Of a stretch of DNA of 39,815 nt, positions 13,332 to 38,515 are shown piece after piece. Source of the stretch: Phycisphaerae bacterium (lineage in GTDB: Bacteria > Planctomycetota > Phycisphaerae > SM23-33). Position 1 is the stretch's first letter. Every line of letters begins with the position of its first letter. The DNA lies in assembly GCA_046539005.1 (NCBI GenBank), contig JBKHHV010000001.1, positions 1 to 39,815 on the forward strand. The letters are read 5' to 3'. The notes under the pieces were generated by a model that saw only the letters and a program-made list of their open reading frames with translations, had not been told where the DNA came from and searched no databases. A program made the position numbers and the translations under genes.

Positions 13332-13394
13332 GGTCGTCTCGTTTCTGCAGCAGCAGGGGCGGTCATGCCCTGCCCTCGCTGCCGTTTCCTTCCG

Positions 13395-14726: not shown

Positions 14727-14858
14727 GGAAGACTCCGGGGTGTCGATAAGCGGCTGCCCGACCACTTGGCGGGGCGAACCGGCTAACCGTTCAATTCGGC
14801 GCGGCGGCGTGTCGGTCACTGCCTGCGGATTGTCGGCGGGCAGGCGCCGCCTCGGGTG

Positions 14859-15245
14859 TCAGTCGTCCTGGGCGGCGAGGAACTTCTCGTAATCCGTCGG
14901 CTTCATGAGCTTTTCCAGGTCGGCGGGGCTGGTAAGGGTCAGCCGGTAGATCCAGCCGTCAGTGTACGGGTCGGAGTTCACCAGCCCGGGATCGTCTTCG
15001 AGGCTGTCGTTGACCTCGCTGATCTCTCCGCCGGCCGGGGCGTATACGCTGGCGGCCGCCTTGCAGCTCTCCAGCGACAGCGCCTCCTCGCCCTGCCGGA
15101 CCTTCTTGCCCTTGTCGGGCAATTCCACGAAGGTCAGGTCGCCCAGTTGCTCCTGGGCGTGCTCGGTGATGCCCACCGTGCCGGTCTGGCCGTCGACGCG
15201 AATCCACTCGTGCTGTTCGGTATACAACAGATCATCCGGTACCAT
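14859..15245 (-). CDS. gcvH: Glycine cleavage system H protein
   Basis: 128 aa. YTEQHEWIRV and the lipoyl-lysine motif LESCKAAASVYAP. The canonical motif is ESVKA; here Cys precedes the Lys. Confidence 0.92.
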   Translation of the reverse strand: MVPDDLLYTEQHEWIRVDGQTGTVGITEHAQEQLGDLTFVELPDKGKKVRQGEEALSLESCKAAASVYAPAGGEISEVNDSLEDDPGLVNSDPYTDGWIYRLTLTSPADLEKLMKPTDYEKFLAAQDD

Positions 15246-15293
15246 TGCTTCCGGTCCTTTCCTGATATCAACGTCCAGCAGGACGTCTGCGAA

Positions 15294-16388
15294 TCACAGT
15301 TTCACTTTCTTCCGGCAGGTTCCGCTGGTGTAGAGGGGCTTCTCGACGAGGGTCGCCTCCATCTTCGCCCGCCCGGTGTCGATGACGATCGACCTGCCGG
15401 CCGCCGAAACGTCCGCCGACACGTATCCGATGCCGATGGAGGTCTGAAGCGACGGGCTGAAAGCCCCGCTGGTCACCTCGCCGGCCACTCGGCCGTCGCA
15501 GAGAATGGTATTGCCGTGGTTCGCCCGGCGGCGCGTGTCGGCCTGGAAGGCGACCAGCCGCCGTGACACGCCGGCGTCTCTTGCCCGCTCCAGTGCCTCA
15601 GCGCCGATGAAATCGTGCGTACGCGTTACGAAGAACCCTAGCTCCGCCTCCAGCGGGTTGGTGTTCTGGTCGATGTCCTCGCCGTAGAGCGGGTAGCCCA
15701 TCTCCAGGCGGAGGCTGTCGCGAGCGCCCAGGCCGGCGGGCTTCACGCCCTCCTGCCCCAGCAGCGTCTGGAACAGTCCCCCCAACTCGGCGGCGGGGTA
15801 GAAGATTTCGTACCCAAGCTCACCGGTGTAGCCGGTGCGGGAGAAGATGCACTCCACCCCGCCCACCTTGGCCCGCCGGGCACGGAAGTAGCCCAGTTCG
15901 TTCAGGTCGGCGTCGGTATGCGGCGCCAGCACCTCGGCCGACCGGGGTCCCTGCACGTCCAGCTTGCCGAAGGACGTCAGCGGCTGCACGTCGATGGACT
16001 CCGGCAGGTGCGTGCGGACCCAGCGGTGGTCCTGCTCGGCCGGGCCGGCGTTGACCACCAGGAAGAACTCTTCCTCGCCCAGGCGTGCGACGATGGTGTC
16101 ATCCAGAATGCCGCCCTGTTCGTTGAGCAGGAACCCGTACTTGCACTGCCCGACCTCCATGGCGGCACAGTCCTGCACGAGCACCTCCCCGAGCCGGTCG
16201 GCTGCGTCGGGCCCGGTAATCAGCAGTTGCCCCATGTGGCAGGTATCGAACAGGCTGACCTGCGAGCGGGTGTGGTTGTGCTCGGCAAGGATGCCCTCGT
16301 ATTGCACCGGCAGCAGCCAACCGTGGAAGTCCACGATGCGGGCTCCGAGTTTCTGATGCATGTCATGCAGGCACGTTTTGTTCGGCAC
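15294..16388 (-). CDS. gcvT: Glycine cleavage system aminomethyltransferase T
   Basis: LHDMHQKLGARIVDFHGWLLPVQY and FDTCHMGQLLITG. I propose a GTG start at 16388, preceded by GGGGAGAG 7 nt upstream. The track ORF extends to 16478, so the start is uncertain. Confidence 0.85.
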   Translation of the reverse strand: MPNKTCLHDMHQKLGARIVDFHGWLLPVQYEGILAEHNHTRSQVSLFDTCHMGQLLITGPDAADRLGEVLVQDCAAMEVGQCKYGFLLNEQGGILDDTIVARLGEEEFFLVVNAGPAEQDHRWVRTHLPESIDVQPLTSFGKLDVQGPRSAEVLAPHTDADLNELGYFRARRAKVGGVECIFSRTGYTGELGYEIFYPAAELGGLFQTLLGQEGVKPAGLGARDSLRLEMGYPLYGEDIDQNTNPLEAELGFFVTRTHDFIGAEALERARDAGVSRRLVAFQADTRRRANHGNTILCDGRVAGEVTSGAFSPSLQTSIGIGYVSADVSAAGRSIVIDTGRAKMEATLVEKPLYTSGTCRKKVKL

Positions 16389-16504
16389 GATGGCACTCTC
16401 CCCGGGTCGTCGGCCCTCTGCACTCCGGCGGCCGGTCGGCAAAGCGACCATGATGCGGGGGAACCCGCCGCGGTTCAACAGATTTCCGCCCTATCGCCTG
16501 GCGC

Positions 16505-16527
16505 CACGGGCGTCTCCGACGCCCGTG
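16505..16527. other. Perfect 10-bp-stem hairpin in the gcvT/hydB intergenic region, related to the one at 9308
   Basis: CACGGGCGTC-TCC-GACGCCCGTG. It has the same architecture as 9308-9330, with compensatory TA->CG stem changes. Confidence 0.5.
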
Positions 16528-17070
16528 CTGTCTCAATGTCGGTGGAATGCTTCGGTAGGGCGGTGCAGCTTTGCTGCCCGCCGCAGAGCCGTTCGTCATC
16601 TTGCCTTCCTTGCGTCGTCTGCAGACTGAGGCCCGGAGGGCCGGCAGAGGATAGCCGGGGGTGGAGCGAAGCGGAACCCCCGGAACAGGCGGCCCTCCTT
16701 CAGAAGGTCGCGCCGCGCCACGGGTCGTAGGTGAGGAGACGTGACAATGCCGGGGCAGGACGATCTGCCGGTGCGGCGGGCGAAGGGTGTAATGGACCAA
16801 GCCATGACGATGACGGCGCTTGTCGTGCACTTCGCGCTGCTTTCTCTGGATCGAGCCCGACAGCGCTGAACGCCAAGGCGACCCGGTGGCGTTTCGCGAA
16901 ATCTCCCATTTCGGTTTGGTGGTTGGCGGGGAGGGGGGCTAAGATACTGCAACCCGGCCGGCGGACAGGAAAGCTCCCCGCGCCGGGGTTTGGTTTTTCA
17001 GTCCCGTTGCGGGCGGCGCCACCCCGGCGACCCTATCCGCCCGCGGGGCAGACCCCTTGCCAGGACAGAC

Positions 17071-19251
17071 ATGAGCAAGATCACCGAAGCGTACCAGAAA
17101 CTGTTCTTCGAGGCCGAGCAGGAGCGACGCCAGAAGAACGAGACCGGGAAGATCCGCATCCAGGTCGGGTCGGCCACCTGCGAAAACGCGGCCGGCGCCG
17201 AGGACATCTTCCAGGAGTTCCAGAAGCACGTGGCCGCCTCCGGGCGGGACGACATTGTCCTGCGCCGCACCGGCTGTACTGGCCGTTGCTCGTGCGAGCC
17301 GATTGTCGGCATTCTCAAGCCCGGCGAGATGCCCGTGAAATATCAGCGGGTCGACCGCGAACTCGTACACAAGATTTTCACCTCCCACATCGTGCACGAC
17401 GAGCCGGTCTTCGACCAGATGCTCGACTCCCACGCCGAGAGGCTCAACACCTACGAACTGCTGATGTGCTCGGGCTCCCGCTGCGGGCGGGGCTTCACCA
17501 AGGGGCTCGACGCTCTGTTCAAGGAGAAGCTCCTGGAGGCGGGGGTGGACCTCTCCCGCATCAACGTGCTGCGGGCCAACTGCTTCGGGCTCTGCCAGGA
17601 CGTCGATCACGGCAACGCCACGCACGTGCTGATCCGCCCGAGCATGGTGATGTATCGCATCGAAACGCCCGAGGACGTCGAGGAGATCGTCGAAACCCAC
17701 GTCAAGAAGGGGCAGTTCGTGGAGCATCTCCGCGTGGCCGACCGCCCCATGAGCCAGCGGTTCTTCAACCTCTACGGCGACGTGGCGTTCTTCAACCAGC
17801 AAAGCCGCATCGCCCTGCGGAACAGCGGCATCATCGACCCCGAGAACATCCACGAGTACATCCACTACAACGGCTTCGAGGCGCTCGCCCAGGTGCTGGA
17901 CCGCGGCGATCAGAAGTGGATCATCGACGAAGTCACCGCCTCCAAGGTCCGCGGTCGCGGGGGCGGAGGGTTCCCCACCGGGCTGAAGTGGGCCAACGCC
18001 GCCGAGCAGGACGCCGACGAGAAGTTCGTGATCTGCAACGCCGACGAGGGCGACCCCGGGGCGTTCATGGACCGCAGCATGCTCGAGGGCGACCCGTTCA
18101 GCATCATCGAGGGCATGATCATCGGCGGGTACGCGGTGGGTGCCACTCGCGGGTTCCTGTATATCCGCGCCGAGTACCCCATGGCCATCCGCCGCGTAGA
18201 GAACGCCATCGTCCAGGCACGCCGGAAAGGCCTGCTGGGCGAGAACATCCTGGATTCGGGCTTCGATTTCGACCTGGAGATCCGTCTCGGGGCCGGGGCG
18301 TTCGTCTGCGGCGAGGAGACCTCGCTGATCCATTCGATCGAGGGCAAGCGCGGTCAGCCGCGCATCCGCCCCCCGTACCCGACCCAGAGCGGGCTGTGGG
18401 GTAAGCCCACGGTCATCAACAATGTGGAGACGTGGGCGAACATCCCGGTGCTGCTGTACTACGGGGCCGAGTGGTTCTCGCAGATCGGCACCGAGAAGTC
18501 CGGCGGCACGAAGGTGTTCGCCCTGGCCGGCAAGGTGGAGCACACCGGGCTGGTGGAGGTGCCCATGGGCACCACGCTGCGGGAGATCGTCTTCGACATC
18601 GGCGGCGGCGTGCCGGGCGGCAAGAAGCTCAAGGCGATCCAGACCGGTGGACCGGCCGGCGGATGCATCCCCGCCAAGTGGCTGGACACCCCCGTCGACT
18701 TCGACACGCTCACCGAGGCCGGCTCGATTATGGGCTCCGGCGGCATGATCGTGATGGACGAGAGCGACTGCATGGTCGACATCGCCAAGTTCTTCATTAC
18801 CTTCAGCCAGGCCGAGAGCTGCGGCAAGTGCACCCCCTGCCGCGAGGGAACCACGCGGATGCTGGAGATTCTCGACAAGATCACCCACGGGCTGGCGACC
18901 CCTGAAGACCTGGTGAAGCTCGACCGGCTCGCCCGGCTGGTGCGTCAGGCGTCGCTGTGCGGGCTGGGACGGGCCGCCCCCAACCCGGTGCTCAGCACGA
19001 TGGAGCACTTCCGCGACGAGTACGAGGCCCACGTGGTCGACAAGACCTGCCCCGCCCACAAGTGCACGGCGCTGGTGCGGTTCGAGATCGACCCCGACAA
19101 GTGCGTCGGGTGCACCGCCTGTGCCCGCAACTGCCCCGTCTCGTGCATCCACGGCAAGCCCAAGCAACTTCACGAGATCGACCAGTCCCGCTGCATCAAA
19201 TGCGGCAAGTGCTTCCAGGTCTGCCGGTTCGACGCGGTCAACAAGCTCTAG
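17071..19251 (+). CDS. hydB: NuoF-like NAD(P)H-binding flavoprotein subunit of a multimeric [FeFe]-hydrogenase (HydB/HndC-like)
   Basis: Two N-terminal thioredoxin-like [2Fe-2S] modules (TGCTGRCSCEP, and CSGSRC...CFGLC). FMN/NADH site GRGGGGFPTG. N3-type cluster ESCGKCTPCREG. C-terminal 2x[4Fe-4S] region CVGCTACARNCP...CIKCGKCFQVC. Start taken at ATG 17071. Confidence 0.85.
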   Translation: MSKITEAYQKLFFEAEQERRQKNETGKIRIQVGSATCENAAGAEDIFQEFQKHVAASGRDDIVLRRTGCTGRCSCEPIVGILKPGEMPVKYQRVDRELVHKIFTSHIVHDEPVFDQMLDSHAERLNTYELLMCSGSRCGRGFTKGLDALFKEKLLEAGVDLSRINVLRANCFGLCQDVDHGNATHVLIRPSMVMYRIETPEDVEEIVETHVKKGQFVEHLRVADRPMSQRFFNLYGDVAFFNQQSRIALRNSGIIDPENIHEYIHYNGFEALAQVLDRGDQKWIIDEVTASKVRGRGGGGFPTGLKWANAAEQDADEKFVICNADEGDPGAFMDRSMLEGDPFSIIEGMIIGGYAVGATRGFLYIRAEYPMAIRRVENAIVQARRKGLLGENILDSGFDFDLEIRLGAGAFVCGEETSLIHSIEGKRGQPRIRPPYPTQSGLWGKPTVINNVETWANIPVLLYYGAEWFSQIGTEKSGGTKVFALAGKVEHTGLVEVPMGTTLREIVFDIGGGVPGGKKLKAIQTGGPAGGCIPAKWLDTPVDFDTLTEAGSIMGSGGMIVMDESDCMVDIAKFFITFSQAESCGKCTPCREGTTRMLEILDKITHGLATPEDLVKLDRLARLVRQASLCGLGRAAPNPVLSTMEHFRDEYEAHVVDKTCPAHKCTALVRFEIDPDKCVGCTACARNCPVSCIHGKPKQLHEIDQSRCIKCGKCFQVCRFDAVNKL

Positions 19252-19320
19252 TCGCCCCCGCAGACCCGTAGCGGACGCAACCAACCCGCCCCCGGCGGAC
19301 GCCAAAGCAAACGAGAACAC

Positions 19321-21081
19321 ATGGCTGAGAAGAAACAGATCAACCTGACCATCGACGGCGTGGAGATCAGCGTGCCCGAGGGCACCACGATCATGGAGGC
19401 GGCCGAGACGCTCGGGGTCCACATCCCGCGTCTGTGCTACCATCCCGACCTGAGCCTGGCAGGCTCCTGCCGCGTCTGCATTGTGGACGTCAAGGGCATG
19501 GGCTTCTTCATGGCTTCCTGCAGCGTGAACGTGTGGGAAGGCATGGAAGTACAGACCAACTCGCCGGAGATCCGCGAGGCGCGGCGCGATATCATCGAGC
19601 TGCTGCTGGACAACCACACCAAGGACTGCCAGACCTGCGAACGCGACGGACACTGCGAACTGCAGAACCTCGCCTACTCCCACGGCGTCCGCGAACGACT
19701 CTTCGAGGGCAAACGCGAAGAGTTCGTCATCGAGACCTCCAGCCGTTCGGTGATCCGCGACCCCAACAAGTGCGTTCTCTGCGGCCGATGCGTTCGCGTG
19801 TGCGACGAGATCCAGGGCGTCACGAACCTCTCCCAGCAGGGACGCGGGTTCGGCACCTTCGTCTCGCCCGCCCACGAGGCCGAGATGGACAACTCCGTCT
19901 GCATCCAGTGCGGACAGTGCATCAACGTCTGCCCCACCGCCGCGTTCCTGGAGCAGAAGCACACCGAGGACGTCTGGAATGCCCTGGCCGATCCGGAGAT
20001 GCACGTGGTCGCCCAGACGGCGCCGTCCATCCGGGCGGCCGTGGGCGAAGGGTTCGGGATCGACCCCGGTACCCCCGAGACCGGGCGGATGATCACCGCC
20101 CTGCGAAGGCTGGGGTTCGATGCGGTGTTCGACACCAACTTCGGCGCCGACCTGACCATCGTGGAAGAGTCGGCCGAGCTTCTGCGACGGCTGGAAGGGC
20201 AGGGCCCGCTGCCGATGTTCACCAGTTGCTCTCCCGGTTGGATCAACTTCCTGGAGAAGTTCTACCCGGCCCTGATTCCCAACGCATCGAGTTGCAAGAG
20301 CCCGATGTCGATGACCTCCACGCTCATCAAGACTTTCTACGCCGAGCAGACGGGGATCGACCCGGCGAAGATCTACGTCGTCGGCGTCATGCCGTGCGTG
20401 GCCAAGAAGTTCGAGATCCACCGCCCCGAGCACGCCATGGAAAACGGCGCGCCCTACACCGACGCGGTGCTGACCACCCGCGAGCTGATCTTCATGATCA
20501 AGTGCTATGGGATCGACTTCGTCTCCCTCCCCGACGGCGAGTTCGACCGCCCGCTGGGGCTTTCGACCGGGGCGGCCGACATCTTCGGAACCACCGGCGG
20601 CGTCATGGAAGCCTCGCTGCGGACGGCCTCGGAGAAGGTCACCGGCAAGCGCGACCAGCTCGAGTTTACCGAGGTCCGCGCGGTGGAAGGCCTGCGGGAA
20701 GCCGACGTGAAACTCGGCGACAAGACGCTGCACGTGGCCGTCGCCAACGGGCTCAACAACGCCAAGACCGTGCTGGACCAGGTGGTGGACGGCAGCAAGG
20801 AGTTCCACATCATCGAGGTGATGGCCTGCCCGGGCGGGTGCATCGGCGGGGGCGGGCAGCCCTATCCGCCCAAGGGCTTCGACGTGCTGGATCCGGAGTT
20901 GCTTCGCCTGCGGGCGTCGGCACTGTACAGCATCGACGGCGGCAAGCAGCTTCGCCGCTCGCACGAGAACCCCGCGATTACCGAAATCTACAGCCGTTTC
21001 CTCGGCGAAATCGGCGGGCCCAAGGCCCACAAGCTTCTGCACACCGAGTACCACCCACGAACCCCCCGAGGGATCCGATGA
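19321..21081 (+). CDS. hydA: [FeFe]-hydrogenase catalytic subunit (M3-type, HydA/HndD-like)
   Basis: N-terminal [2Fe-2S] region (CYHPDLSLAGSCRVCIV), a His-ligated cluster region (HTKDCQTCERDGHCELQ), and 2x[4Fe-4S] (CVLCGRCVRVC, CIQCGQCINVCP). H-cluster motifs are L1 FTSCSPGW, L2 MPCVAKKFE and L3 EVMACPGGCIGGGGQP. Confidence 0.9.
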   Translation: MAEKKQINLTIDGVEISVPEGTTIMEAAETLGVHIPRLCYHPDLSLAGSCRVCIVDVKGMGFFMASCSVNVWEGMEVQTNSPEIREARRDIIELLLDNHTKDCQTCERDGHCELQNLAYSHGVRERLFEGKREEFVIETSSRSVIRDPNKCVLCGRCVRVCDEIQGVTNLSQQGRGFGTFVSPAHEAEMDNSVCIQCGQCINVCPTAAFLEQKHTEDVWNALADPEMHVVAQTAPSIRAAVGEGFGIDPGTPETGRMITALRRLGFDAVFDTNFGADLTIVEESAELLRRLEGQGPLPMFTSCSPGWINFLEKFYPALIPNASSCKSPMSMTSTLIKTFYAEQTGIDPAKIYVVGVMPCVAKKFEIHRPEHAMENGAPYTDAVLTTRELIFMIKCYGIDFVSLPDGEFDRPLGLSTGAADIFGTTGGVMEASLRTASEKVTGKRDQLEFTEVRAVEGLREADVKLGDKTLHVAVANGLNNAKTVLDQVVDGSKEFHIIEVMACPGGCIGGGGQPYPPKGFDVLDPELLRLRASALYSIDGGKQLRRSHENPAITEIYSRFLGEIGGPKAHKLLHTEYHPRTPRGIR

Positions 21082-28763: not shown

Positions 28764-29145
28764 CTACACCGTGGTCTGCCGGCGGCACTTACCCTGTCTG
28801 GTGGAGACAACCTCATCGTGGTTCGGGCGACCGATAGCCCGGACACGGTCGAACTGTGGCTGAACCCCGACCCCCACGGCGGCCGACCCCGGCCAGGCCG
28901 ACTGGAGCGAAAGTGGCATGTACGCTCTGGTGACCGGCAACAGCGGCATTGGCTTCGAGCGATTCTTCATCCACGAAGCATTCAACAACAGCTCCAGCGG
29001 CTCGGACGGCGTGCCGCAGTCGGTGACCGTCGACGAACTCCGCTTCGGCGAAACGTACGCCGACGTGACCCCCGTCCACGAACCGGCGACGATGAGCCTG
29101 CTGGCGCTGGGCGGCCCGGGCGTGCTGCCGAAGCGCAGGCGGTAG
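28764..29145 (+). pseudogene. 5'-truncated, frameshifted remnant of a PEP-CTERM-anchored (LamG-like tail) protein
   Basis: Frame A (28764-28875) reads ...GGDNLIVVRATDSPDTVELWLNPDP. Frame B (+1, from ~28864) reads ...ADPGQADWSESGMYALVTGNSGIGFERFF...VTVDELRFGETYADVTPVHEPATMSLLALGGPGVLPKRRR, then stop. No start or signal peptide is present, because the mntP stop codon immediately precedes frame A. Confidence 0.5.
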
Positions 29146-29530
29146 TTCCCAGCCTGTCGAAAGGATCCGCCGTGGGGCGTGCCCGACGGGCGACTGTTAT
29201 CGCTTCATGAAGCGGGCGGCCTGTACCTCCTCGGGTCGCCCGTTTCGCTATGATTGAGCCGTACCGATGCCGGGCCGCCCGCGCGAGCACAACGAAAACC
29301 CGTTGGTTTATCCGGCTGCCCCGGGGGTCTTCAGCGGAGGGGCGGCTGACTTCGCAGACTTGCCGAATCGCGCATATGCGGGTAGCGGAATAGCACTCTC
29401 CCGGCTATACTGGAGACCTGATCTTACGCGTTCATACATGAATACAGTGCATAGGCAGTAACTCTCCCGGCCGGTCCGTCGAAGGTGTTCCGCGCGGCGG
29501 GTCGAGGGATGTCTCTTTCGTGGTGACGAC

Positions 29531-32002
29531 ATGACCAAGCACGCCTACGGCACCGTCTGGGTGCCCCTCACCGTTGCGCTGACCCTGATGCTTGTCTGCG
29601 CCCTCGTTCCGTCCGCGTCGGCCGCCCGGCAGGATTTCCGCGCCGCCCGCGCCTACAAGGGTTTCTCCGACGAGGCCGTCGAGGAAGCCATCGGCAAGGG
29701 GGTTCGTTGGCTTTGGGAGCACCAGAACGACGACGGCAGTTTCAGCGAGGTCGCCCCTCGCCGCAATCGGGGCGGCATCCGGCTGACCGGGCATTACGCG
29801 GTCGGCAGGACCGCCATCGCCATGTACGCGCTGCTGGAAAGCGGAGCCAGCGTGCAGGACGAGCGGGTCAAGAAGACCCTCAAGTACCTCGAAGAAACCT
29901 GGACCGACCGCACCTACGACATCGCCCTGCGGGCCAACGTGTGGCTGCTGGCGATGCGCGGAGACGACTCCTACCGCAAGCATCTGCAGAAGGACGTGGA
30001 TATCCTCGTCAAGAGCGATCTCAGCGGCAGCTACACCTACCAGTCCCGCTACGCCCTGAAGGACGCCCCGCGCAAGGTCAAGGAACGCTACCAACGCATG
30101 ATCGAGGCCCGCCGCAAACTCCGCAAGCAGAACCCCAACCGTCGGCGACGCTTCCGCCGGGGCGACAACTCCAACGCCCAGTACGGCGTGCTGGGTGTGT
30201 GGGCCGGCGTCCGCGGAAACGTGGAGGTGCCCAGCAAGTACTGGAAGGCCGTCGAAGAGCACTGGTCGGACTGCCAGTCCAAGGACGGCGGCTGGGGGTA
30301 TTCCAGCTACGGCCGCCAGAAGCCCTACCCGGCAATGACCGCCGCCGGGGTGGCGACGCTGTTCGTCTGTGCCGACAACCTGTACTACAACAAGTTCCTT
30401 CGCTGTGATACCGGGCTGGAGATGACCCGCATCAACAACGGGCTCAAGTGGATCGAGAAACATTTCGACGAGTCGATGAAGCCGCCCAAGAAAGGACGCG
30501 GCGGGGTCATGGTCGGAAACGTTCACGGACTCAACAACTACTACCTCTACGGGATCGAGCGGGTCGGGCTCGCCAGCGGATACAAGTATTTCGGCAAGAG
30601 CGACTGGTACAAGGCCGGCGCCAGCTACCTGCTCCGCATGCAGAACAAGAAGGGCTTCTGGCCGGGCGGCTGGGCCGACGGACAGAACCTCGGGGCGACC
30701 GCCTACGCCGTGCTGTTTCTTCTGCGCGGCCGCCAGCCGGTACTCATGAACAAGCTGGAGTACGACTGCGACTGGAACAACCGCCCCCGCGCCGTCGCCA
30801 ACGCCTGTCACTGGATGACCCGCAAGTTCGAGACCGAGATCAACTGGCAGATCATCAACCTCAAGGTGCCGGTTTCGGAATGGCATGACGCGCCGGTGCT
30901 GCTGCTGACCGGCTCGCGCGAGCCGAAGTTCTCCGACAAACAGCTCGACAAGCTCCGCCAGTTCGTCCACGAGGGCGGCACGCTGTATTCCATCACCGAA
31001 TGCAACGGCGAAGGCTTCAGCGAGGGCATCCGCAAGGTCTACCGCAAGCTGTTCCCGGACTACGAACTGACGCCCTGCCCCGACGACCATCCCATCCAGA
31101 ACACCCAGTTCGACCTCCGCGGACGGATCAGGTTCCACGAGATCCACAACGGCGTCCGCCCGCTGGTGGTGCATTCCGACCAGGACCTGCCCTTCGACTG
31201 GCAGCAGTACCGCCACCGGACGAAGACCCATATTTTCGAGGCGGCCGCCAACGTGCCTTTCTACATCTGCGGGAAAGACGGCTTCCGCCCGCGAGGCACC
31301 AGCCCCTGGCCGAAAGAGCAGAAATTCCGCCCGGTTGCGACGGTGAAGATCGCCCGCCTCAAGCACAACGCCCACTACGACCCCGAGCCGCTGGCGTGGG
31401 CTCGCATGGCACGGCTGATGGGCAACCGCCTGCAGGTCAAGCTGGACGTCTCCGAACCCATGGCGATGGGCCAGTTGGGCGAGTCGGAGGCGAAGGTGGC
31501 GGTCCTGAGCGGAACCGGCCGCCTCAAGCTGACCCTTGCCCAGAAGACCGCCCTGCAGAAGTTCCTCTTGGGCGGAGGGACGCTCATCGTCGAGGCGTGC
31601 GGCGGAAACGAAGCGTTCGCCGACTCGGCCGAGAAGGCCATCGCCGGGATGATGCGGGTGCCCTCGCTGATGGACCTGCCCGCCACGCATCCCCTCTACC
31701 GCCGTGAGAAAATGGAGATCGACCAGGTGCGCTACCGACGGGGCAAGGGCAAAGCCATCCGCAAGGACAACCCCGACCTGAAGGTCGCCTACGCCGGCCG
31801 CCGGGCGGCCGTGATCTTCTCCGACAAGGACATGACGGCCGGTCTGCTGGGCATCACCCACGACAACATCGACGGGTACATGCCCGAGGACGCCGTACGC
31901 CTGATGCGGAACATCGTGCTGTACGCCGCCGGATCCGAGCTTGATTCGCCCGACGAAAAGGCCCCCGCCGCCGAGGGAAAGATATTCGGCGACGAATCGT
32001 AA
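29531..32002 (+). CDS. Exported protein with prenyltransferase/squalene-cyclase-like repeats plus two DUF4159-like modules (paralog A)
   Basis: Signal peptide VPLTVALTLMLVCALVPSASAA. Repeats HQNDDGSF, QSKDGGWGY and MQNKKGFWPGGW. Module 1 begins KLEYDCDWNNRPRAVANACHW...WHDAPVLLLTGS...FVHEGGTLY. Module 2 begins ARLKHNAHYDPEPLAW...FLLGGGTLIVEACGG...IFSDKDMTAGLLG...RNIVLYA. Confidence 0.85.
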   Translation: MTKHAYGTVWVPLTVALTLMLVCALVPSASAARQDFRAARAYKGFSDEAVEEAIGKGVRWLWEHQNDDGSFSEVAPRRNRGGIRLTGHYAVGRTAIAMYALLESGASVQDERVKKTLKYLEETWTDRTYDIALRANVWLLAMRGDDSYRKHLQKDVDILVKSDLSGSYTYQSRYALKDAPRKVKERYQRMIEARRKLRKQNPNRRRRFRRGDNSNAQYGVLGVWAGVRGNVEVPSKYWKAVEEHWSDCQSKDGGWGYSSYGRQKPYPAMTAAGVATLFVCADNLYYNKFLRCDTGLEMTRINNGLKWIEKHFDESMKPPKKGRGGVMVGNVHGLNNYYLYGIERVGLASGYKYFGKSDWYKAGASYLLRMQNKKGFWPGGWADGQNLGATAYAVLFLLRGRQPVLMNKLEYDCDWNNRPRAVANACHWMTRKFETEINWQIINLKVPVSEWHDAPVLLLTGSREPKFSDKQLDKLRQFVHEGGTLYSITECNGEGFSEGIRKVYRKLFPDYELTPCPDDHPIQNTQFDLRGRIRFHEIHNGVRPLVVHSDQDLPFDWQQYRHRTKTHIFEAAANVPFYICGKDGFRPRGTSPWPKEQKFRPVATVKIARLKHNAHYDPEPLAWARMARLMGNRLQVKLDVSEPMAMGQLGESEAKVAVLSGTGRLKLTLAQKTALQKFLLGGGTLIVEACGGNEAFADSAEKAIAGMMRVPSLMDLPATHPLYRREKMEIDQVRYRRGKGKAIRKDNPDLKVAYAGRRAAVIFSDKDMTAGLLGITHDNIDGYMPEDAVRLMRNIVLYAAGSELDSPDEKAPAAEGKIFGDES

Positions 32003-32042
32003 TGTGTTCACAATCGCAGCACCCTTTGAGGAAACGCAACCC

Positions 32043-34361
32043 ATGAGCAATCGCAGGAAACCCACCCCGGCATGGACGATTGTGGCTTTGATGGCGGTGT
32101 CGCTGAGCGCGGCCGCGGCAGGAAAGCCCGGCATGCTGCCCGGGAAGAACACCCAAACCCGCGACCGTAAGGACTTCACCGACGCCGACGTCCAGAAGGC
32201 GATCGATCGGGGCGTGAGCTACCTTCTGAAAACCCAACAGGATGACGGCAGTTGGGCCAAGAAGAACACCAACAACTACGCCTACCCCGTCGGACCGACC
32301 GCGATCTGCACCTATGCGCTGCTGGAGGCGGGGGTGAAGCCCACCCACCCCAAGGTGAAGAAGGCGCTGGCGTTCCTCTCCAAGACCGAGACCGAGAACA
32401 CCTACTGCTACGCCTTCCGCGCCAGCGCCTACGCCGCGGCGATGAGGTACGACAGGAACACCTTCCTCCGTCCACTGATGAAAGACGTGTCGGTCATCTG
32501 GCACTCGTTCCACAAAGACACCGGCGGCTACTCCTACTTCTGCAAGGGACGACCCGCACGCGACAAGGAACTGGCGAGCTTCGCCGGCGGCCCGGACCAG
32601 TCCAACTCCCAGTACGCGCTGCTGGGCGTCTGGGCGGGTTCCCGCTGGGGCGTGGAGGTGCCCTCGGGCTTCTGGAAGGTCAGCATGGAATACTGGCTCA
32701 GGACCCAGAATGCCGACGGCGGCTGGGGCTACAGCCCCAAGACGCGGAAGGAGTCCTACATGGCGATGACCCTGGCGGGCCTGGCGAGCCTGTACGTCTG
32801 CGTGGACAACCTCTACGCCAGCCGTTTCCTCGCCTGCCGCGGCAACGCCGAGATTCCCCAGATCTCCAGGGGCCTGGACTGGGTGGAGAAGAACTTCAAG
32901 GAGATGCTCGAACTCAAGCAGTGGTTCTACTACACGCTGTACGGGCTGGAACGCGTCGCCCTGGCGACCGGGTACAAGTACTTCGCCAAACACGACTGGT
33001 ACAAGCTGGGCACCTCCGAACTGCTCTCCCGCCAGGACCGCGACGGCTCGTGGTCCGGCGGTAAATACGGCGGGGGACCCACCGCCCAGACCTCCTATGC
33101 CCTGCTGTTCCTCGTCCGCGGCAGAAGGCCGGTGCTGTTCAACAAACTCGAATTCGAGGGCGACTGGAACAACCGCCCGCGCGACATGGCCAACGTCACC
33201 CGCTGGATGCAGGGGCGTTTCGAGACCGACGTCGCCTGGCAGATCATCAACGCCGACCTGCCCGTTACCGAATGGCACGACGCGCCGATCCTCTACATCT
33301 CCGGCTCCAAAGCCCCCAGATTTACCGACGAGCAGATCGCGCGGCTGCGGACGTTCGTCCTTCAGGGCGGGACGATCTTCAGTTGCACCGAATGTAGCGG
33401 CAAGGGCTTCCGCGAGGGGATCCGCCAGGTCTACGCCAAGATGTTCACCAAGTACGAACTGACCCCCTGCGGGCCCGACCACCCGGTCTACTCGTCCCAG
33501 TACGACCTGAAGGGGCGACCCAAACTGCATGAGATCAGCAACGGCGTTCGGCCGCTGGTGTTCCACACCGACCACGACCTGCCCCGGGCGTGGCAACTCT
33601 TCCGTACCCGCTCGCGAAGCAGCGAGTTCGAGGCGGCCGTCAATATCGCGATGTACGTCAACGGGCGAGGCGAGTTCCGCCGCCGCGGTACCAGTCCCTG
33701 GCCGACAGCCGAGCGATTCGAGCCCGTCGCCACCGTTGCCGTCGCACGGCTGAAGCACAACGCCCAATGGAACCCCGAGCCGCTGGCGTACGAACGCTTC
33801 GCCCGCATGCTGGGCAATCGCTGCAAGGTCAAGCTGAATGTCACCGAGCCGATGGACATCGACGCACTTGCCGACTCCGACGCGAAGGTCGCCGTGATGA
33901 CCGGGCTGGGCACGCTGAAGCTCAGCGAGAAGGAGTCGGCCGCCCTGAAGGCCTTCGTGGCCGGCGGGGGAATGGTCATCGTCGACGCAGCCGGCGGGAA
34001 TGAAACCTTCGGCGACTCGGCCCGCAAACAGCTCTCCGAGACGTTCGGCGAACCGTTCGTGAACCTGCTGGGCAGCGGGGCCGTGCTGGGTCGCAAGGGC
34101 ATGGCCATCACCGACGTCCGCACCCGCCGCATCGGCCGGGCGACCGTCCAGCAGGGCAGCCCGCGACTCAAGACGATCCTGGTCGACTCCCGCCCGGGGG
34201 TGATCTTCTCCGACCGGGACATCACCGCCGGCCTGGTGGGATACCCCTTCGACCACATCGACGGTTACATGCCCGAAGACGCCTACCGCCTGATGCGCAA
34301 CTGCATCCTTACCGCCGCCGGGGTAAGCCCCGACAAGACGGCCGAGCCCGGGCAGGACTGA
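32043..34361 (+). CDS. Exported protein with prenyltransferase/squalene-cyclase-like repeats plus two DUF4159-like modules (paralog B)
   Basis: Start at ATG 32043 (MSNRRKPTPAWTIVALMAVSLSAAAAG), with GAGGAAA 8 nt upstream, 41 nt after the paralog A stop. It is colinear with A throughout: TQQDDGSW, QNADGGWGY, KLEFEGDWNNRPRDMANVTRW, ARLKHNAQWNPEPLAY, IFSDRDITAGLVG. Confidence 0.85.
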   Translation: MSNRRKPTPAWTIVALMAVSLSAAAAGKPGMLPGKNTQTRDRKDFTDADVQKAIDRGVSYLLKTQQDDGSWAKKNTNNYAYPVGPTAICTYALLEAGVKPTHPKVKKALAFLSKTETENTYCYAFRASAYAAAMRYDRNTFLRPLMKDVSVIWHSFHKDTGGYSYFCKGRPARDKELASFAGGPDQSNSQYALLGVWAGSRWGVEVPSGFWKVSMEYWLRTQNADGGWGYSPKTRKESYMAMTLAGLASLYVCVDNLYASRFLACRGNAEIPQISRGLDWVEKNFKEMLELKQWFYYTLYGLERVALATGYKYFAKHDWYKLGTSELLSRQDRDGSWSGGKYGGGPTAQTSYALLFLVRGRRPVLFNKLEFEGDWNNRPRDMANVTRWMQGRFETDVAWQIINADLPVTEWHDAPILYISGSKAPRFTDEQIARLRTFVLQGGTIFSCTECSGKGFREGIRQVYAKMFTKYELTPCGPDHPVYSSQYDLKGRPKLHEISNGVRPLVFHTDHDLPRAWQLFRTRSRSSEFEAAVNIAMYVNGRGEFRRRGTSPWPTAERFEPVATVAVARLKHNAQWNPEPLAYERFARMLGNRCKVKLNVTEPMDIDALADSDAKVAVMTGLGTLKLSEKESAALKAFVAGGGMVIVDAAGGNETFGDSARKQLSETFGEPFVNLLGSGAVLGRKGMAITDVRTRRIGRATVQQGSPRLKTILVDSRPGVIFSDRDITAGLVGYPFDHIDGYMPEDAYRLMRNCILTAAGVSPDKTAEPGQD

Positions 34362-34425: not shown

Positions 34426-35052
34426 TCACCGGCGGGCGAGGATGAACGCCCCCAGCAGCACCAGCGGAAGAACGGCCGTGATGCCCCCGGCCACCATCAC
34501 CCACACGCACGTGGACGCCGGCCAGGGGGCGCGGTTCTGCCGCAGCACGCGTACGTTGCCCAGTTCGGCCGCGGGGAACCGGCTGCGGAGCATCGACACA
34601 TGGCGCGGCGGCAGGTCCACCGCCCCTCCGGAAAGCAGCCCTGCCAGGGAGTCCGACGGCTGACGCCCGCCGGGAAGCTCACGCGCCGACTGCTCCACGT
34701 CCAGCCGCACCAGGACGATGAGGCGATCGGCAATGACCGCATCGGCGTCGGTGCTGACAGGTGAGGCAGGGCCTTGGTCCGCCGGTGCCAAGGGGTAGTA
34801 GAACACAGCCTCCCCGTGCTCGCGGTCCTCATCCGCCTCGATCAGAACCCCTTGGTCGCATAGCCGCAGGTGTGGACCGATCTGCACGAAGTTGCTCGGG
34901 GGTTTGCGCCCGGTGCCCAGTTCCTGCAGCGTGATGGGGTGGGGCTCCTGCCCCGCACCACCCCCGATGGCGTGCTGACGGTAGCCGGCCGTCGCCAGCA
35001 CACCGCCCAACGCCACGAATACCCCCACCAGCGCAAACCGCAGGAAGACCAT
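34426..35052 (-). CDS. Hypothetical membrane protein (N- and C-terminal TM helices)
   Basis: ATG at 35052 (MVFLRFALVGVFVALGGVLATAGY) with GAGG upstream. C-terminal TM VWVMVAGGITAVLPLVLLGAFIL. I recognise no family. Confidence 0.6.
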   Translation of the reverse strand: MVFLRFALVGVFVALGGVLATAGYRQHAIGGGAGQEPHPITLQELGTGRKPPSNFVQIGPHLRLCDQGVLIEADEDREHGEAVFYYPLAPADQGPASPVSTDADAVIADRLIVLVRLDVEQSARELPGGRQPSDSLAGLLSGGAVDLPPRHVSMLRSRFPAAELGNVRVLRQNRAPWPASTCVWVMVAGGITAVLPLVLLGAFILARR

Positions 35053-35418
35053 CGAGCTACCTCGTCTGGACACGACAGGAACCCCGCCCGCTACCGGACC
35101 GGTCCGCTACCGAATGCTTCGGCCAACGGCTTGCCTAACATTCAACATAAGAACAGGTTATGCGCAAAATGCCGGCGGACCCCTTCCGCTGCCTTCGCAA
35201 CATGGACGCAGAGTCGACATCTTACGCAATGGTGGGAAACGCTCCCGGTTCCGCTGGTGTTGCAGGCTGGTCCGCAGAATGGTTGTCACCGAAGCCGGTC
35301 GTCGTGGGGCGACTGGTGGCGGTCAGCCGATTGCATTGCCCGCAGGCGGCGCGGTATGGTGCAGGTCGGCCGACGTGGCCGAGACGACCGGCGAGTCCAG
35401 GGACGGAGACACGGTGAG

Positions 35419-36684
35419 ATGGACAGATTTCTGATCCAGGGCGGCACCCGCCTGCGAGGCGAGGTGCGCATTGGCGGGGCGAAGAACGCAGCCCTTCCCA
35501 TCATGGCAGCGGCACTGTTGGCCGACGGGCCTTCGGTTATCCGCGACGTGCCGGACCTGGCCGATATCCGTGCCATGGCCGACCTGCTGTGCGACCTGGG
35601 CGCCCCCACCACCCGCGATTCCGACGGCACCCTGCGTATCGCCGTGCAGGACGAATCCAGCTCGCACGCCGAATACGACCGCGTCCGCAAGATGCGCGCC
35701 AGCATCTGCGTGCTGGGTCCGCTGCTGGCCAAGCGCCGCTCGGCGAGGGTTGCGATGCCCGGCGGGTGTGCCATCGGCTCCCGCCCGGTCGACCTGCACC
35801 TTCGCGGGCTGCGTGCCCTGGGGGCCGAGATCGAACTCGACGGCGGCGATATCGTCGCATCCGCACGAAAACTGCACGGGGCAAGCGTCTTCCTGGGCGG
35901 GCCCTTCGGCTCGACCGTGCTGGGCACCGCCAACGTCATGATGGCCGCCTGCCTCGCCGACGGACGCACCGTGATCGAGTCGGCCGCGTGCGAGCCGGAA
36001 ATCGCCGACCTTGCCGATTACCTCACGAAGATGGGCGCCCGCATCGAGGGGGCAGGCACCCCCCGCGTGGTCATCGACGGGGTCGACCGCCTCCGCGGCG
36101 TCGAACACACCGTCATCGCCGACCGCATCGAGGCCGGCACCTTCATGATCGCCGCGGCGCTGACCAACGGCGAAGTGAAAGTGCGGAACGTGCACACCGA
36201 GCACATGCTGGCAGTCGTCGACCGGATGGGCGACATCGGCGTGGGCATCGAGCACGAGGACGGCGGGGTGGTGGTCTCCAGTGCCCGCCGGCTGGAACCG
36301 GTGGACATCACCACCTATCCGTACCCCGGTTTTCCCACCGACCTGCAGGCCCAGATCATGACGCTGCTGTGCCTTGCCGACGGCAACAGCGCGATTACCG
36401 AAAAGATATTCCCCGACCGTTTCATGCACGTGGCGGAACTGCTGCGGATGGGCGCCAATATCCGCAAGGAAGGTCCCACCGCGATCGTCACCGGCGTCAA
36501 GAAGCTCATCGGCGCGCCGGTGATGGCCAGCGACCTGCGAGCCTCGGCGGCGCTGGTGCTGGCGGGGCTGGTGGCACGGGGTACCACCACCGTCCAGCGG
36601 GTCTACCACATCGACCGCGGCTACGACAGCATCGAGACCAAGCTCCGCGGGCTGGGCGCGAATATCAAGCGCGTCAGCGAGTAG
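35419..36684 (+). CDS. murA: UDP-N-acetylglucosamine 1-carboxyvinyltransferase
   Basis: MDRFLIQGGTRLRGEVRIGGAKNAALPIMAAALLA and the active-site loop KMRASICVLGPLLA...PGGCAIGSRPVDLHL, with the Cys present. 421 aa. Confidence 0.92.
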   Translation: MDRFLIQGGTRLRGEVRIGGAKNAALPIMAAALLADGPSVIRDVPDLADIRAMADLLCDLGAPTTRDSDGTLRIAVQDESSSHAEYDRVRKMRASICVLGPLLAKRRSARVAMPGGCAIGSRPVDLHLRGLRALGAEIELDGGDIVASARKLHGASVFLGGPFGSTVLGTANVMMAACLADGRTVIESAACEPEIADLADYLTKMGARIEGAGTPRVVIDGVDRLRGVEHTVIADRIEAGTFMIAAALTNGEVKVRNVHTEHMLAVVDRMGDIGVGIEHEDGGVVVSSARRLEPVDITTYPYPGFPTDLQAQIMTLLCLADGNSAITEKIFPDRFMHVAELLRMGANIRKEGPTAIVTGVKKLIGAPVMASDLRASAALVLAGLVARGTTTVQRVYHIDRGYDSIETKLRGLGANIKRVSE

Positions 36685-38416
36685 CCTCGCGCAAACCGGC
36701 ACCGGCGAGCGAACCCGATGCGCCGCCGGCCTGTTTCAGGTCCCACACGTAGACGTTCACCGACCGGGCCGGAATGTGGAGCGTCGGCTCGGTGGGGTCC
36801 ACCTTCACCGGCTCGCCCTCCAGCAGGTCGGTCAGGTCGCGGATGAACGGCGTGCTGTTTCGGGGCTGTGCCTGCCATCCGTACCGCGTAACCGCCCGGG
36901 GTGTGCCCAGACCCTTCAGCGTGACCCGCAACGGCAGGTCGCGGTCCCACGAGCGATTGATCACGTGCAGGTACAGCCTGCCCTCGTCGGCCGTGGTCAC
37001 CGCGTCCAGCAGGGCGACGGTTCCCGGCGGCGTCGCCCAGCCGATGCGAAGGTCCACCGGGACGGTCGGCACCTGCCCCAGCTCCGACCGCACCAGCCAT
37101 CGGCCGTGGTTGCGGGCGCTCAACATCGTCGTGACCCCGGTGGGCAGCAGGCCGGGCGGCTCGTTTCCGTCCGGGTCCACGCGAATGGCGGTAATGCCCC
37201 AACTCCTGCCCACCAGCAGCGACTGGTTGGCGAGCTTCACGTGAGCGGCATTGCGGATGAGCCCGTGCAGGAAACCCGCCGAGCCCACGCCGGCCGCCCA
37301 CAGCGGGTCGAAGCCGGGACGGGGCTTGAGCTTCCGCTCGCCCCACCCGTTCCAGTTCCACTCGGTGACGCCGGTGGTCTTGCACATCTCGGTGTATTGG
37401 CGGTACACGTCGCCAAACGCCACGCACTGCCCGTTGGGGTCGTATTCGCCGGGCATGGCCACGAAGACCCGCCACCAGTCGGCGTCGCCGAACTGGTTGG
37501 GATCGGCGTTGTCGGGCTGCTGCATGGGCCCGGGCGCATAGGCGTGGTGGGTGAGTATCTCCACGCGCCGGCGAATCCCCGGCCGCTTCGACAGCCTCGC
37601 CAGAACGCTGTCCTCCCGACGCGGGCCGTCCATGAGGATCGTGATCGACGGATCCACCTGCTTCATGCGATCAATGACGGCAGTAAGACACTCGGCGTAC
37701 CGGTCGGCCGCCTTCTGGGGAGTGTCGAGGCCGAGGTGTTCCTCCCGCTGCACCTTGCCCTGCACGATCCACAGCTCGTTGCCCGCCTGCCACAGCTTCA
37801 CGCCGTAGGGGGCGGGGTGCCCGTTGCGGGCCCGCAGGCGGGGCCATTTCTCCAGGTCGCCGGGCAGGTCGACACCCAGGGGAGCATTACAGTAAGCCAC
37901 GTACGCCGCCGCCTCGTAAGCGACCTGCTCCAGTGTCTGCATGTCTCGGACAGCCGCCAGCACCTTCACCACCAGCAGCGGCTGGGAGTCCAGTTCATCG
38001 CAGAGGGCGAGGAATTCGTCCAGCCCGAAACGGTTGGTGATCCTCCCGCCGGTATGCCCGACGGTGGTGGGACGGGGCTTGCCCTCGCGGCCCGGTGCGT
38101 TGGAGACCATGTCCCGCCAGTCGATGTAGTCCACGTCCGAGCCTCCGGGGAACCGCAGCAGCGGAATCTTCATGTGCTTCATGAGCGTCACCACCCGGGG
38201 GTCGAGGGTATGGGTGCCCGGCAGCAGGGCGGCTTCGGGGCCGGGCTCGCCCCAGCTTGCCCGCTCCAGGAACTGTCCGAAGATGCGGGAGTCGACCTCG
38301 GCGAGAGTCTCGTTGGTTACCGTCAGGCGCGGGCCTGTGTAGCTGCCCGAACAGCCGCACAGCAGCACAGCCGCCAGGAAAGCGGCGAGAAACAGGGGGG
38401 CAAGTCCGTTGGCCAT
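36674..38416 (-). CDS. Lipoprotein glycoside hydrolase, GH51-like (alpha-L-arabinofuranosidase-like clan GH-A fold)
   Basis: Lipobox AAVLLCGCSG. IFGQFLERASWG...IPLLRFPGGSDVDYIDW resembles the GH51 N-terminal barrel. WQAGNELW is a candidate acid/base NE motif. The family assignment is from memory of motifs only. Confidence 0.75.
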   Translation of the reverse strand: MANGLAPLFLAAFLAAVLLCGCSGSYTGPRLTVTNETLAEVDSRIFGQFLERASWGEPGPEAALLPGTHTLDPRVVTLMKHMKIPLLRFPGGSDVDYIDWRDMVSNAPGREGKPRPTTVGHTGGRITNRFGLDEFLALCDELDSQPLLVVKVLAAVRDMQTLEQVAYEAAAYVAYCNAPLGVDLPGDLEKWPRLRARNGHPAPYGVKLWQAGNELWIVQGKVQREEHLGLDTPQKAADRYAECLTAVIDRMKQVDPSITILMDGPRREDSVLARLSKRPGIRRRVEILTHHAYAPGPMQQPDNADPNQFGDADWWRVFVAMPGEYDPNGQCVAFGDVYRQYTEMCKTTGVTEWNWNGWGERKLKPRPGFDPLWAAGVGSAGFLHGLIRNAAHVKLANQSLLVGRSWGITAIRVDPDGNEPPGLLPTGVTTMLSARNHGRWLVRSELGQVPTVPVDLRIGWATPPGTVALLDAVTTADEGRLYLHVINRSWDRDLPLRVTLKGLGTPRAVTRYGWQAQPRNSTPFIRDLTDLLEGEPVKVDPTEPTLHIPARSVNVYVWDLKQAGGASGSLAGAGLREATR

Positions 38417-38454
38417 GGGGGTACCTTTCGAGACGTCTGCCGATGGTCTGGCGG

Positions 38455-38496
38455 AAGAGAAAGGGCGTCGAGACTTTCGTAATTGTCCCGACGCCC
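38455..38496 (-). terminator. Intrinsic terminator downstream of yebC
   Basis: On the minus strand: GGGCGTCGGGAC-AATTACGAAA-GTCTCGACGCCC (12-bp stem with one G:U), followed by TTTCTCTT. It starts 20 nt after the yebC stop. Confidence 0.6.
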
Positions 38497-38515
38497 GTTT
38501 GGTTGTGCGGCGCGG

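Follow-up and report, generated by a model that had tools for sequence, protein, structure and literature searches.

What do two large, adjacent and probably exported bacterial proteins do, and do they do it together? The question is raised by a 39,815-nucleotide (nt) stretch of DNA from a Phycisphaerae bacterium (Planctomycetota, lineage SM23-33; assembly GCA_046539005.1, contig JBKHHV010000001.1; hereafter the window), in which two paralogous genes, A and B, lie in tandem. Phycisphaerae are abundant degraders of polymers in sediments, and little is understood of their cell envelope. An earlier note, made from the sequence, had described each protein as a signal peptide followed by terpene-cyclase-like repeats and two DUF4159-like modules, and had suggested that the duplicated architecture belongs to a heteromeric envelope or periplasmic machine. 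Here we report a computational analysis of both proteins, their family and their genomic contexts. It favours, with about an even chance of being correct, a reading in which A and B are stand-alone exported paralogues that act alone or as homo-oligomers and that bind or process a polymer near the junction between the helical toroid and the first DUF4159 module. The A/B pairing itself is an old local duplication, not a conserved two-part system.

Gene A (29531–32002, + strand; 823 residues) and gene B (32043–34361, + strand; 772 residues from the ATG at 32043, with an open frame that reaches upstream to a TTG at 31941) are both supported by the list of open reading frames (ORFs) and by Pfam matches, together with an AlphaFold2 (AF2) model for A and a BLASTP comparison with A for B. 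The proteins are colinear and share 47% identity across about 810 aligned positions (E = 0), a figure that rises to 54% over the C-terminal ~400 residues and stays at 47% over the N-terminal domain, much as the earlier note had read them: same-strand, colinear genes of these lengths whose C-terminal 400 residues are roughly half identical. The relationship is also visible in the DNA as direct repeats with a spacing of 2389–2392 nt and an identity of 72–77%. The spacer between the genes (32003–32042, + strand) is indeed short, at 40 nt and not the 41 nt given before, and carries a Shine–Dalgarno-like GAGGAA motif at 32028–32033, 9 nt ahead of the ATG of gene B. No terminator-like site was predicted on the + strand between 28500 and 35500, and A and B are therefore probably co-transcribed as one transcript; the terminator-like sites found in that scan all lie on the minus strand and do not exceed the shuffle expectation. 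Codon-position G+C supports the + strand frames as coding (G+C at third codon positions, 0.87–0.88). Two long antisense ORFs, of 915 (29432–32179, − strand) and 800 residues (31854–34256, − strand), failed the same filter and were set aside as artefacts of high G+C. An NCBI protein annotated as 'DUF4159 domain-containing protein [Phycisphaerae bacterium]' is 100% identical to protein A, and a 772-residue protein of the public collection (P0005) is identical to protein B. Both copies are intact: A retains all 80, and B 79, of the 80 positions at which the family is at least 95% conserved, and the decay of one copy that the earlier note had contemplated is not seen.

The AF2 model of A (35-sequence alignment; predicted local distance difference test score (pLDDT) 87, predicted template modelling score (pTM) 0.86) divides the protein into three domains. 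An (α/α) toroid (residues ~41–401, nt 29651–30733, + strand), recognized by its helical hairpins in the model, weak Pfam matches and generic Foldseek matches, is followed by DUF4159 module 1 (residues ~402–598, nt 30734–31324, + strand) and DUF4159 module 2 (residues ~599–803, nt 31325–31939, + strand). The corresponding domains of B span residues ~41–361 (nt 32163–33125), ~362–558 (nt 33126–33716) and ~559–762 (nt 33717–34328), all on the + strand. Pfam PF13709 (DUF4159) matches twice in each protein (A, 126.6 bits, E = 1.2e-36; B, 121.2 bits, E = 5.5e-35; cut-off 25.9 bits), and modules 1 and 2 are homologous to each other (hhalign probability 98.8%). In the model, module 1 starts straight after the last toroid helix, with no linker between, and in both A and B the three domains probably form a rigid whole. 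Each toroid contains Q-x-x-(D/K)-G-x-(W/F) motifs at three places (residues 65, 249 and 371 of A and 65, 222 and 331 of B), residues ~40–290 match SQHop_cyclase_C, TED_complement and Prenyltrans weakly, and the C-terminal half has marginal matches to IFT52_GIFT, DUF4350 and ABC_transp_aux. Thus, both structural proposals of the earlier note hold, namely a toroid of the terpene-cyclase, prenyltransferase and thioester-domain type with QW-like motifs, and two DUF4159-like modules with a fold like that of class-I glutamine amidotransferases. Protein A also contains a highly basic, predicted helical insertion, ALKDAPRKVKERYQRMIEARRKLRKQNPNRRRRFRRG (residues ~175–210, window 30053–30160), which has no counterpart in B or in the family consensus (column conservation 0.03).

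The closest structural relative of the modules is Hoch_4089 from Haliangium ochraceum (Protein Data Bank (PDB) 4I66), a solved single-domain DUF4159 protein of unknown function. In Foldseek searches of the PDB it was the top match both for the full-length A model (target-normalized template modelling (TM) score 0.74) and for module 1 alone (E = 3.1e-9, TM 0.72, root mean square deviation 3.1 Å), and a profile search recovered it as well (E = 8e-7). The two share a G-D-W...P loop after strand 1, a G-G before strand 4 and a D-L after a late strand. In contrast to A and B, which carry a toroid and a second module, 4I66 stands alone (chain of 209 residues; relatives of ~250–280 residues), and it lacks the cysteine and histidine of module 1 discussed below. 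Genes for 4I66-like DUF4159 proteins were also seen on two Myxococcota contigs (L083, 8001–12511; L084, 8001–12670), where a PF07090 (GATase1_like) protein of ~830–890 residues and a protein of ~390 residues lie directly 3′ on the same strand. The matches of module 1 that follow 4I66 are class-I amidotransferases, ThuA-like proteins, the IFT52 GIFT domain and a fucosidase accessory domain, at TM scores of ~0.4–0.5.

As the earlier note had held, no established function emerges from profile and structure searches (Pfam, NCBIfam, PDB, Foldseek and PADLOC). The NCBIfam scan of A and B returned only sub-threshold cyclase matches, searching PDB sequences with just the C-terminal half produced nothing beyond chance matches (for example, DNA polymerase epsilon, E ~0.05), the PADLOC anti-phage models matched neither A nor B nor the ORF with two hydrophobic segments downstream of them, and Rfam and tRNA scans found nothing. 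A literature search for DUF4159, PF13709, Hoch_4089, 4I66 and IPR025297 yielded only the Pfam 2016 paper, which assigned DUF4159 to the amidotransferase clan from structure alone.

Both proteins are probably exported. At both N termini a basic and then a hydrophobic stretch lead up to an A-x-A-type cleavage site, giving a predicted Sec signal peptide at residues 1–31 of A (nt 29531–29623, + strand; cleavage between VPSASA and ARQ) and a predicted signal peptide at residues 1 to ~26 of B (+ strand; cleavage between SLSAAAA and GK). The N terminus of A is a low-confidence helix in the AF2 model. An N-terminal hydrophobic segment is present in 224 of 236 full-length family members (95%), and the signal peptides claimed by the earlier note are thus upheld. 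Within the toroid, Cys280 and Cys292 are both present in 83 of 91 members, and this co-conservation makes a C280–C292 disulfide likely. Cys491 of module 1 has no co-conserved partner cysteine.

Where, then, would such a protein act on its target? Conservation peaks at the junction between the toroid and module 1 (residues 341–360 and 395–460) and, averaged over domains, falls from module 1 to module 2 to the toroid. Within module 1, two motifs stand out: [T/A/S]-E-C491-x-G at the turn between the strand 484–489 and the helix 494–507 (T-E-C491-N-G in A), and H548-x-D550-x-D552 on the strand 544–549 (H548-S-D550-Q-D552 in A). The codons for Cys491 and His548 of A lie at 31001–31003 and 31172–31174, and that for the corresponding Cys451 of B at 33393–33395, all on the + strand. 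In two sets of 91 and 264 members, Cys491 is present in 82 and 217 (82–90%), His548 in 91 and 235 (89–100%) and Asp550 in 69 and 177 (67–76%), respectively. Module 2 has the consensus D-A-A-G-G and F-S-x-E-D at these positions; the Cys690 of module 2 of A aligns with E490 and not with C491. Since both module 2 and 4I66 lack the cysteine and the histidine, these residues are a family-specific addition to module 1. The earlier note had been able to assign no catalytic residues; a candidate Cys/His/Asp set can now be named, and catalysis by it is unproven.

This set raises the possibility of an active cysteine hydrolase or amidase in module 1, with Cys491 as nucleophile, His548 and Asp550 or Asp552 as base and acid, the toroid as substrate holder and module 2 as an inactivated duplicate. 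Class-I amidotransferases (2A9V, HisH and the glutaminase domain of CTP synthase) have the same α/β fold and strand order as module 1; as judged by strand order, with an alignment of Escherichia coli GATase1 domains for comparison, Cys491 at the putative nucleophile elbow and the H-x-D motif, on what would be the equivalent late strand, appear to sit where these enzymes have G-x-C-x-G and H-x-E. True amidotransferases are also among the next structural neighbours of module 1 (2a9v, E = 6e-4, TM 0.40; 2vkt; 2d7j; 1wl8; all weak similarities), the cysteine is unpaired within an exported protein, and the cysteine and histidine are highly conserved and specific to the family. However, a coupled dyad should vanish together, whereas Cys491 and His548 are lost independently: among the 264 members, 40 retain only the histidine, 22 only the cysteine and 7 neither, against 5.2 expected by chance. 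Asp550 is variable, and the most invariant residues are others (G482, G483, W415, N540, R543, W439, Q440, R418 and D552). Moreover, no sequence relation to the class-I amidotransferases was detectable: hhalign of module 1 against six Escherichia coli GATase1 domains gave a probability of 0.4% and an uninformative alignment, the Pfam scan of A and B returned no PF00117 match, and the structural similarity reaches a TM score of only ~0.4. Unlike those enzymes, A and B are exported, not cytoplasmic, and have no synthase partner. On balance, we consider an active cysteine hydrolase unlikely.

One subfamily, found at eight loci (L035, L048, L053, L057, L062, L063, L066 and L068), reads W-N-C-R-P-R-D, with an extra cysteine at the position of N417 of A; in it, E-A-A-C replaces T-E-C, and H-S-P-x-E-V replaces H-T-D-x-D-L. 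In three of these (L048, L062 and L068) only the new cysteine is retained. The extra cysteine could form a disulfide, belong to a metal site or be a relocated cysteine.

The toroid offers a second set of candidate residues. Conserved polar and aromatic residues sit at the N termini of three helices, 128–141 (Y129), 213–228 (D212, S214, N215 and Q217) and 336–349 (Y337, E343 and R344). We take these to be inner helices, in which case the conserved residues would lie at the usual ligand site of toroid proteins. The hairpin toroid and its Q-x-x-D-G-x-W repeats are shared with squalene–hopene cyclases (SHC), protein prenyltransferase β-subunits and the thioester domains (TED) of complement proteins and α2-macroglobulins, to which Pfam, PDB-profile and Foldseek searches gave weak matches; SQHop_cyclase_C scores 27–42 bits, and TED_complement reaches 26.0 bits in A and 19.4 bits in B against a cut-off of 22. 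On the other hand, PF00432 (Prenyltrans) stays below its cut-off of 26.5 bits, at 15.0 and 14.5 bits, and the NCBIfam cyclase models TIGR01507, TIGR01787 and TIGR03463 score 12–38 bits against cut-offs of 323–851. None of the DxDD, DDxxD and CxEQ motifs occurs in A or B, and no toroid histidine is conserved in at least 97% of the 91 aligned members, so that a zinc site of the prenyltransferase or LanC type is absent. A has one small toroid of ~360 residues where the cyclases have a two-toroid body of ~630 residues, the Pfam scan of A and B found no macroglobulin domains, and the structural similarity stays at TM scores of at most 0.53. It is therefore very improbable that the toroid is a terpenoid cyclase or prenyltransferase proper, or a thioester capture domain; the missing motifs effectively refute such an identity.

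A toroid of this kind might instead be a new (α/α)-barrel glycoside hydrolase or polysaccharide lyase, with conserved acids such as D282 and E343, or R344, K352 or tyrosines, as catalytic residues and the DUF4159 modules as accessory or oligomerization domains. The Foldseek neighbours of the toroid (2sqc, 4gtm, 2rgk and 9y6c among them) are generic six-hairpin proteins and include GH154 and YihS/AGE isomerases beside SHC, farnesyltransferase β and the C5 thioester domain, and module 1 has among its neighbours a chain of an α-L-fucosidase (6tvk). GATase1-like accessory domains occur in glycoside hydrolase family 42 (GH42; its domain B) and related enzymes. The conserved residues at the helix N termini, the lectin-like domains fused to some members and the sulfatases or glycosidases that are occasional neighbours of family genes would all fit an enzyme of this kind. 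Yet the structural matches are weak (target-normalized TM 0.32–0.53, E ≥ 3.7e-4), neither Pfam nor NCBIfam gives a CAZy-type family match, only two acidic residues of the toroid are invariant, and conservation is lower in the toroid than in either module. We regard a catalytic toroid as quite unlikely.

The family to which A and B belong is large. A word-indexed search returned 792 relatives, the named ones all from Phycisphaerae or Planctomycetota, and an exhaustive profile search of 1.84 billion cluster representatives gave 15009 matches at E ≤ 1e-3 and 4283 at E ≤ 1e-30, with family clusters counted at 50% identity. In this analysis the family occurs only in Planctomycetota, mainly in Phycisphaerae. 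Members are typically ~750–800 residues long. Some have an N-terminal signal peptide, then a double zinc ribbon and a Trypsin_2 domain, some end in an F5/8-type-C domain, and others carry Laminin_G_3, or HEAT plus VWA domains. For genomic context we used a survey with one genome per species, which returned 216 loci; the best 80 were analysed, and all come from metagenome-assembled genomes (MAGs) of Planctomycetota (L numbers designate loci). Several of these MAGs contribute 4–6 genes each and thus have at least 4–6 paralogues.

If A and B were subunits of one heteromeric machine, as the earlier note had suggested, possibly together with the convergent ORF with two hydrophobic segments beyond gene B, their pairing should recur. 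The local arrangement allows it: the genes share a strand, lie only 40 nt apart with a ribosome-binding site in between and have no terminator predicted on that strand, which makes one transcript probable, and both copies have stayed fully intact despite a long divergence. Tandem arrangements also recur, with two copies at 13 of the 80 loci, three copies at one, and a further triple in L080. Nevertheless, 66 of the 80 loci hold a single copy. The closest relatives of A (L004, L005 and L006; 60–63% identity) have no paralogue in their visible contig flanks (in L006 only ~0.7 kb downstream), and A orthologues thus stand alone in three MAGs; the closest relative of B (L008; 62%) lies in the same MAG as L004 (CAZFPT) but on a different contig with unrelated flanks. 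Tandem partners elsewhere rank 0–3 of 90 as mutual nearest relatives in 11 of 13 adjacent same-strand comparisons, at identities of 0.50–0.61. They are recent local duplicates of varied lineages and do not form conserved pairs of an A type with a B type, and because they are mostly each other's closest relatives, we read the tandems as repeated local duplication: the family expands by tandem duplication in Phycisphaerae.

Nor do the neighbouring genes supply a partner. No neighbour in the window recurs at the related loci, the convergent ORF (34426–35073), which has two hydrophobic segments, has neither a homologue at any of the 80 loci nor a family match, and an all-against-all clustering of six-frame neighbour ORFs from the 80 loci gave no partner common to the whole family. 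The earlier note was accordingly right that no functional partner adjoins the pair apart from, conceivably, that convergent ORF, but the heteromeric machine that it had drawn from the duplication is not supported: A/B adjacency, for which it had proposed a check of neighbourhood conservation, is not conserved. A heteromeric machine is, on this evidence, distinctly unlikely.

One group of orthologues, at 20 loci, shares its surroundings: prfB lies upstream, and a polytopic, BPD_transp_2-like membrane protein is encoded convergently on the downstream side; we read this as inherited gene order with no functional link, and the group looks like the ancestral 'core' copy. The membrane protein (~400 residues; Pfam BPD_transp_2 in L002) lies immediately 3′ of the family gene, and the set of loci with the prfB-like gene upstream, L002 among them, overlaps this one only in part. 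The group includes L002, L007, L009–L011, L013, L015, L018, L031, L037, L039, L043, L051, L072, L077 and L078. A link to peptidoglycan, prompted by MurA downstream of A and B and by AnmK and a GKRP_SIS-domain gene, possibly MurQ-like, ~1.6 kb upstream in L001, was rejected: these neighbours do not recur.

We return to stand-alone paralogues that act on a polymer. On this model, A and B would meet their target outside the cytoplasm. It would be a macromolecule, most probably an envelope or environmental glycan or glycoprotein. We infer this type of target because relatives add lectin-like, VWA and protease domains, and the non-catalytic relatives of the fold agree with it. The conserved residues of the toroid helices 128–141, 213–228 and 336–349 and the face of module 1 next to them would jointly form the ligand site. 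Module 2 may have degenerated into a scaffold or docking surface, like the GIFT domains in IFT52 and Wbp1, and target choice might vary among paralogues with the N-terminal half of the toroid, the more variable one, and with added domains. If the target is cleaved, the nucleophile could be the unpaired Cys491 or an acid pair in the toroid.

The GIFT domains of IFT52, GldG and Wbp1 and the ThuA-like protein 4PXY are non-catalytic members of the same fold group. PF23355 (IFT52_GIFT) matches A marginally, at 27.5 bits against a cut-off of 27.2, and B below it, at 20.8 bits, and Foldseek aligns module 1 with 5fmr (E = 3.6e-3, query-normalized TM 0.50) and 4pxy (E = 7e-4). The GIFT domain of IFT52 is a protein-docking module (PMC9753473), and Wbp1 and GldG have been proposed to bind sugars (PMC7226087, citing Beatson & Ponting 2004). 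However, the similarity is weak, the partners and contexts of these proteins differ from those of A and B, and none of them is fused to an α/α toroid.

Several points weigh against our reading. The link to glycans or glycoproteins comes solely from the domains fused to a minority of members and from the types of residue that are conserved. The spatial clustering of the conserved residues is derived from secondary-structure positions, and conservation at the junction could reflect the packing of the two domains. Co-transcription and the intactness of both copies are compatible with an interaction between A and B specific to this lineage. Most loci lie among housekeeping genes, and not in clusters resembling polysaccharide-utilization loci. 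A stronger variant of the proposal, in which module 1 is a new, active branch of exported Cys-His-Asp hydrolases or amidases, the toroid a substrate clamp, and the 4–6 paralogues of each genome a hitherto unrecognized family of enzymes that process envelope or environmental glycans or glycopeptides in Phycisphaerae, strikes us as rather unlikely.

Upstream of gene A are genes for a PfkB kinase and MntP, and on the other side the MurA gene adjoins the convergent ORF on its far side from B. The 767-nt gap between MntP and A holds a frameshifted C-terminal remnant of a PEP-CTERM protein (28790–29146, + strand) that ends in DELRFGETYADVTPVHEPATMSLLALGGPGVLPKRRR and a stop codon; it has neither a start codon nor a signal peptide and is probably a pseudogene fragment. 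A 613-residue ORF (36674–38515, − strand) has a lipoprotein-like N terminus, AAVLLCGCSGSY, and no Pfam match. Further upstream, the stretch 11883–21081 contains a glycine-cleavage operon (T, H, P1 and P2) on the − strand, adjoined on the + strand by genes for a NuoF-like flavoprotein and the large subunit of an [FeFe]-hydrogenase, which suggest an anaerobic, fermentative organism.

The sequences of A and B are already public under a DUF name, and both of their folds are known, but their combined architecture has no characterized member. The gene pair is best described as two paralogous stand-alone genes, and not as a novel multi-component system. The family behind it, with thousands of clusters, several copies per genome, no characterized member and a literature that consists only of a Pfam entry, is a sizeable blank in the biology of these bacteria. 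If the site at the junction between the toroid and module 1 binds or cleaves a defined polymer, A, B and their relatives would represent a new class of binding proteins or enzymes that work outside the cytoplasm and combine two familiar folds.

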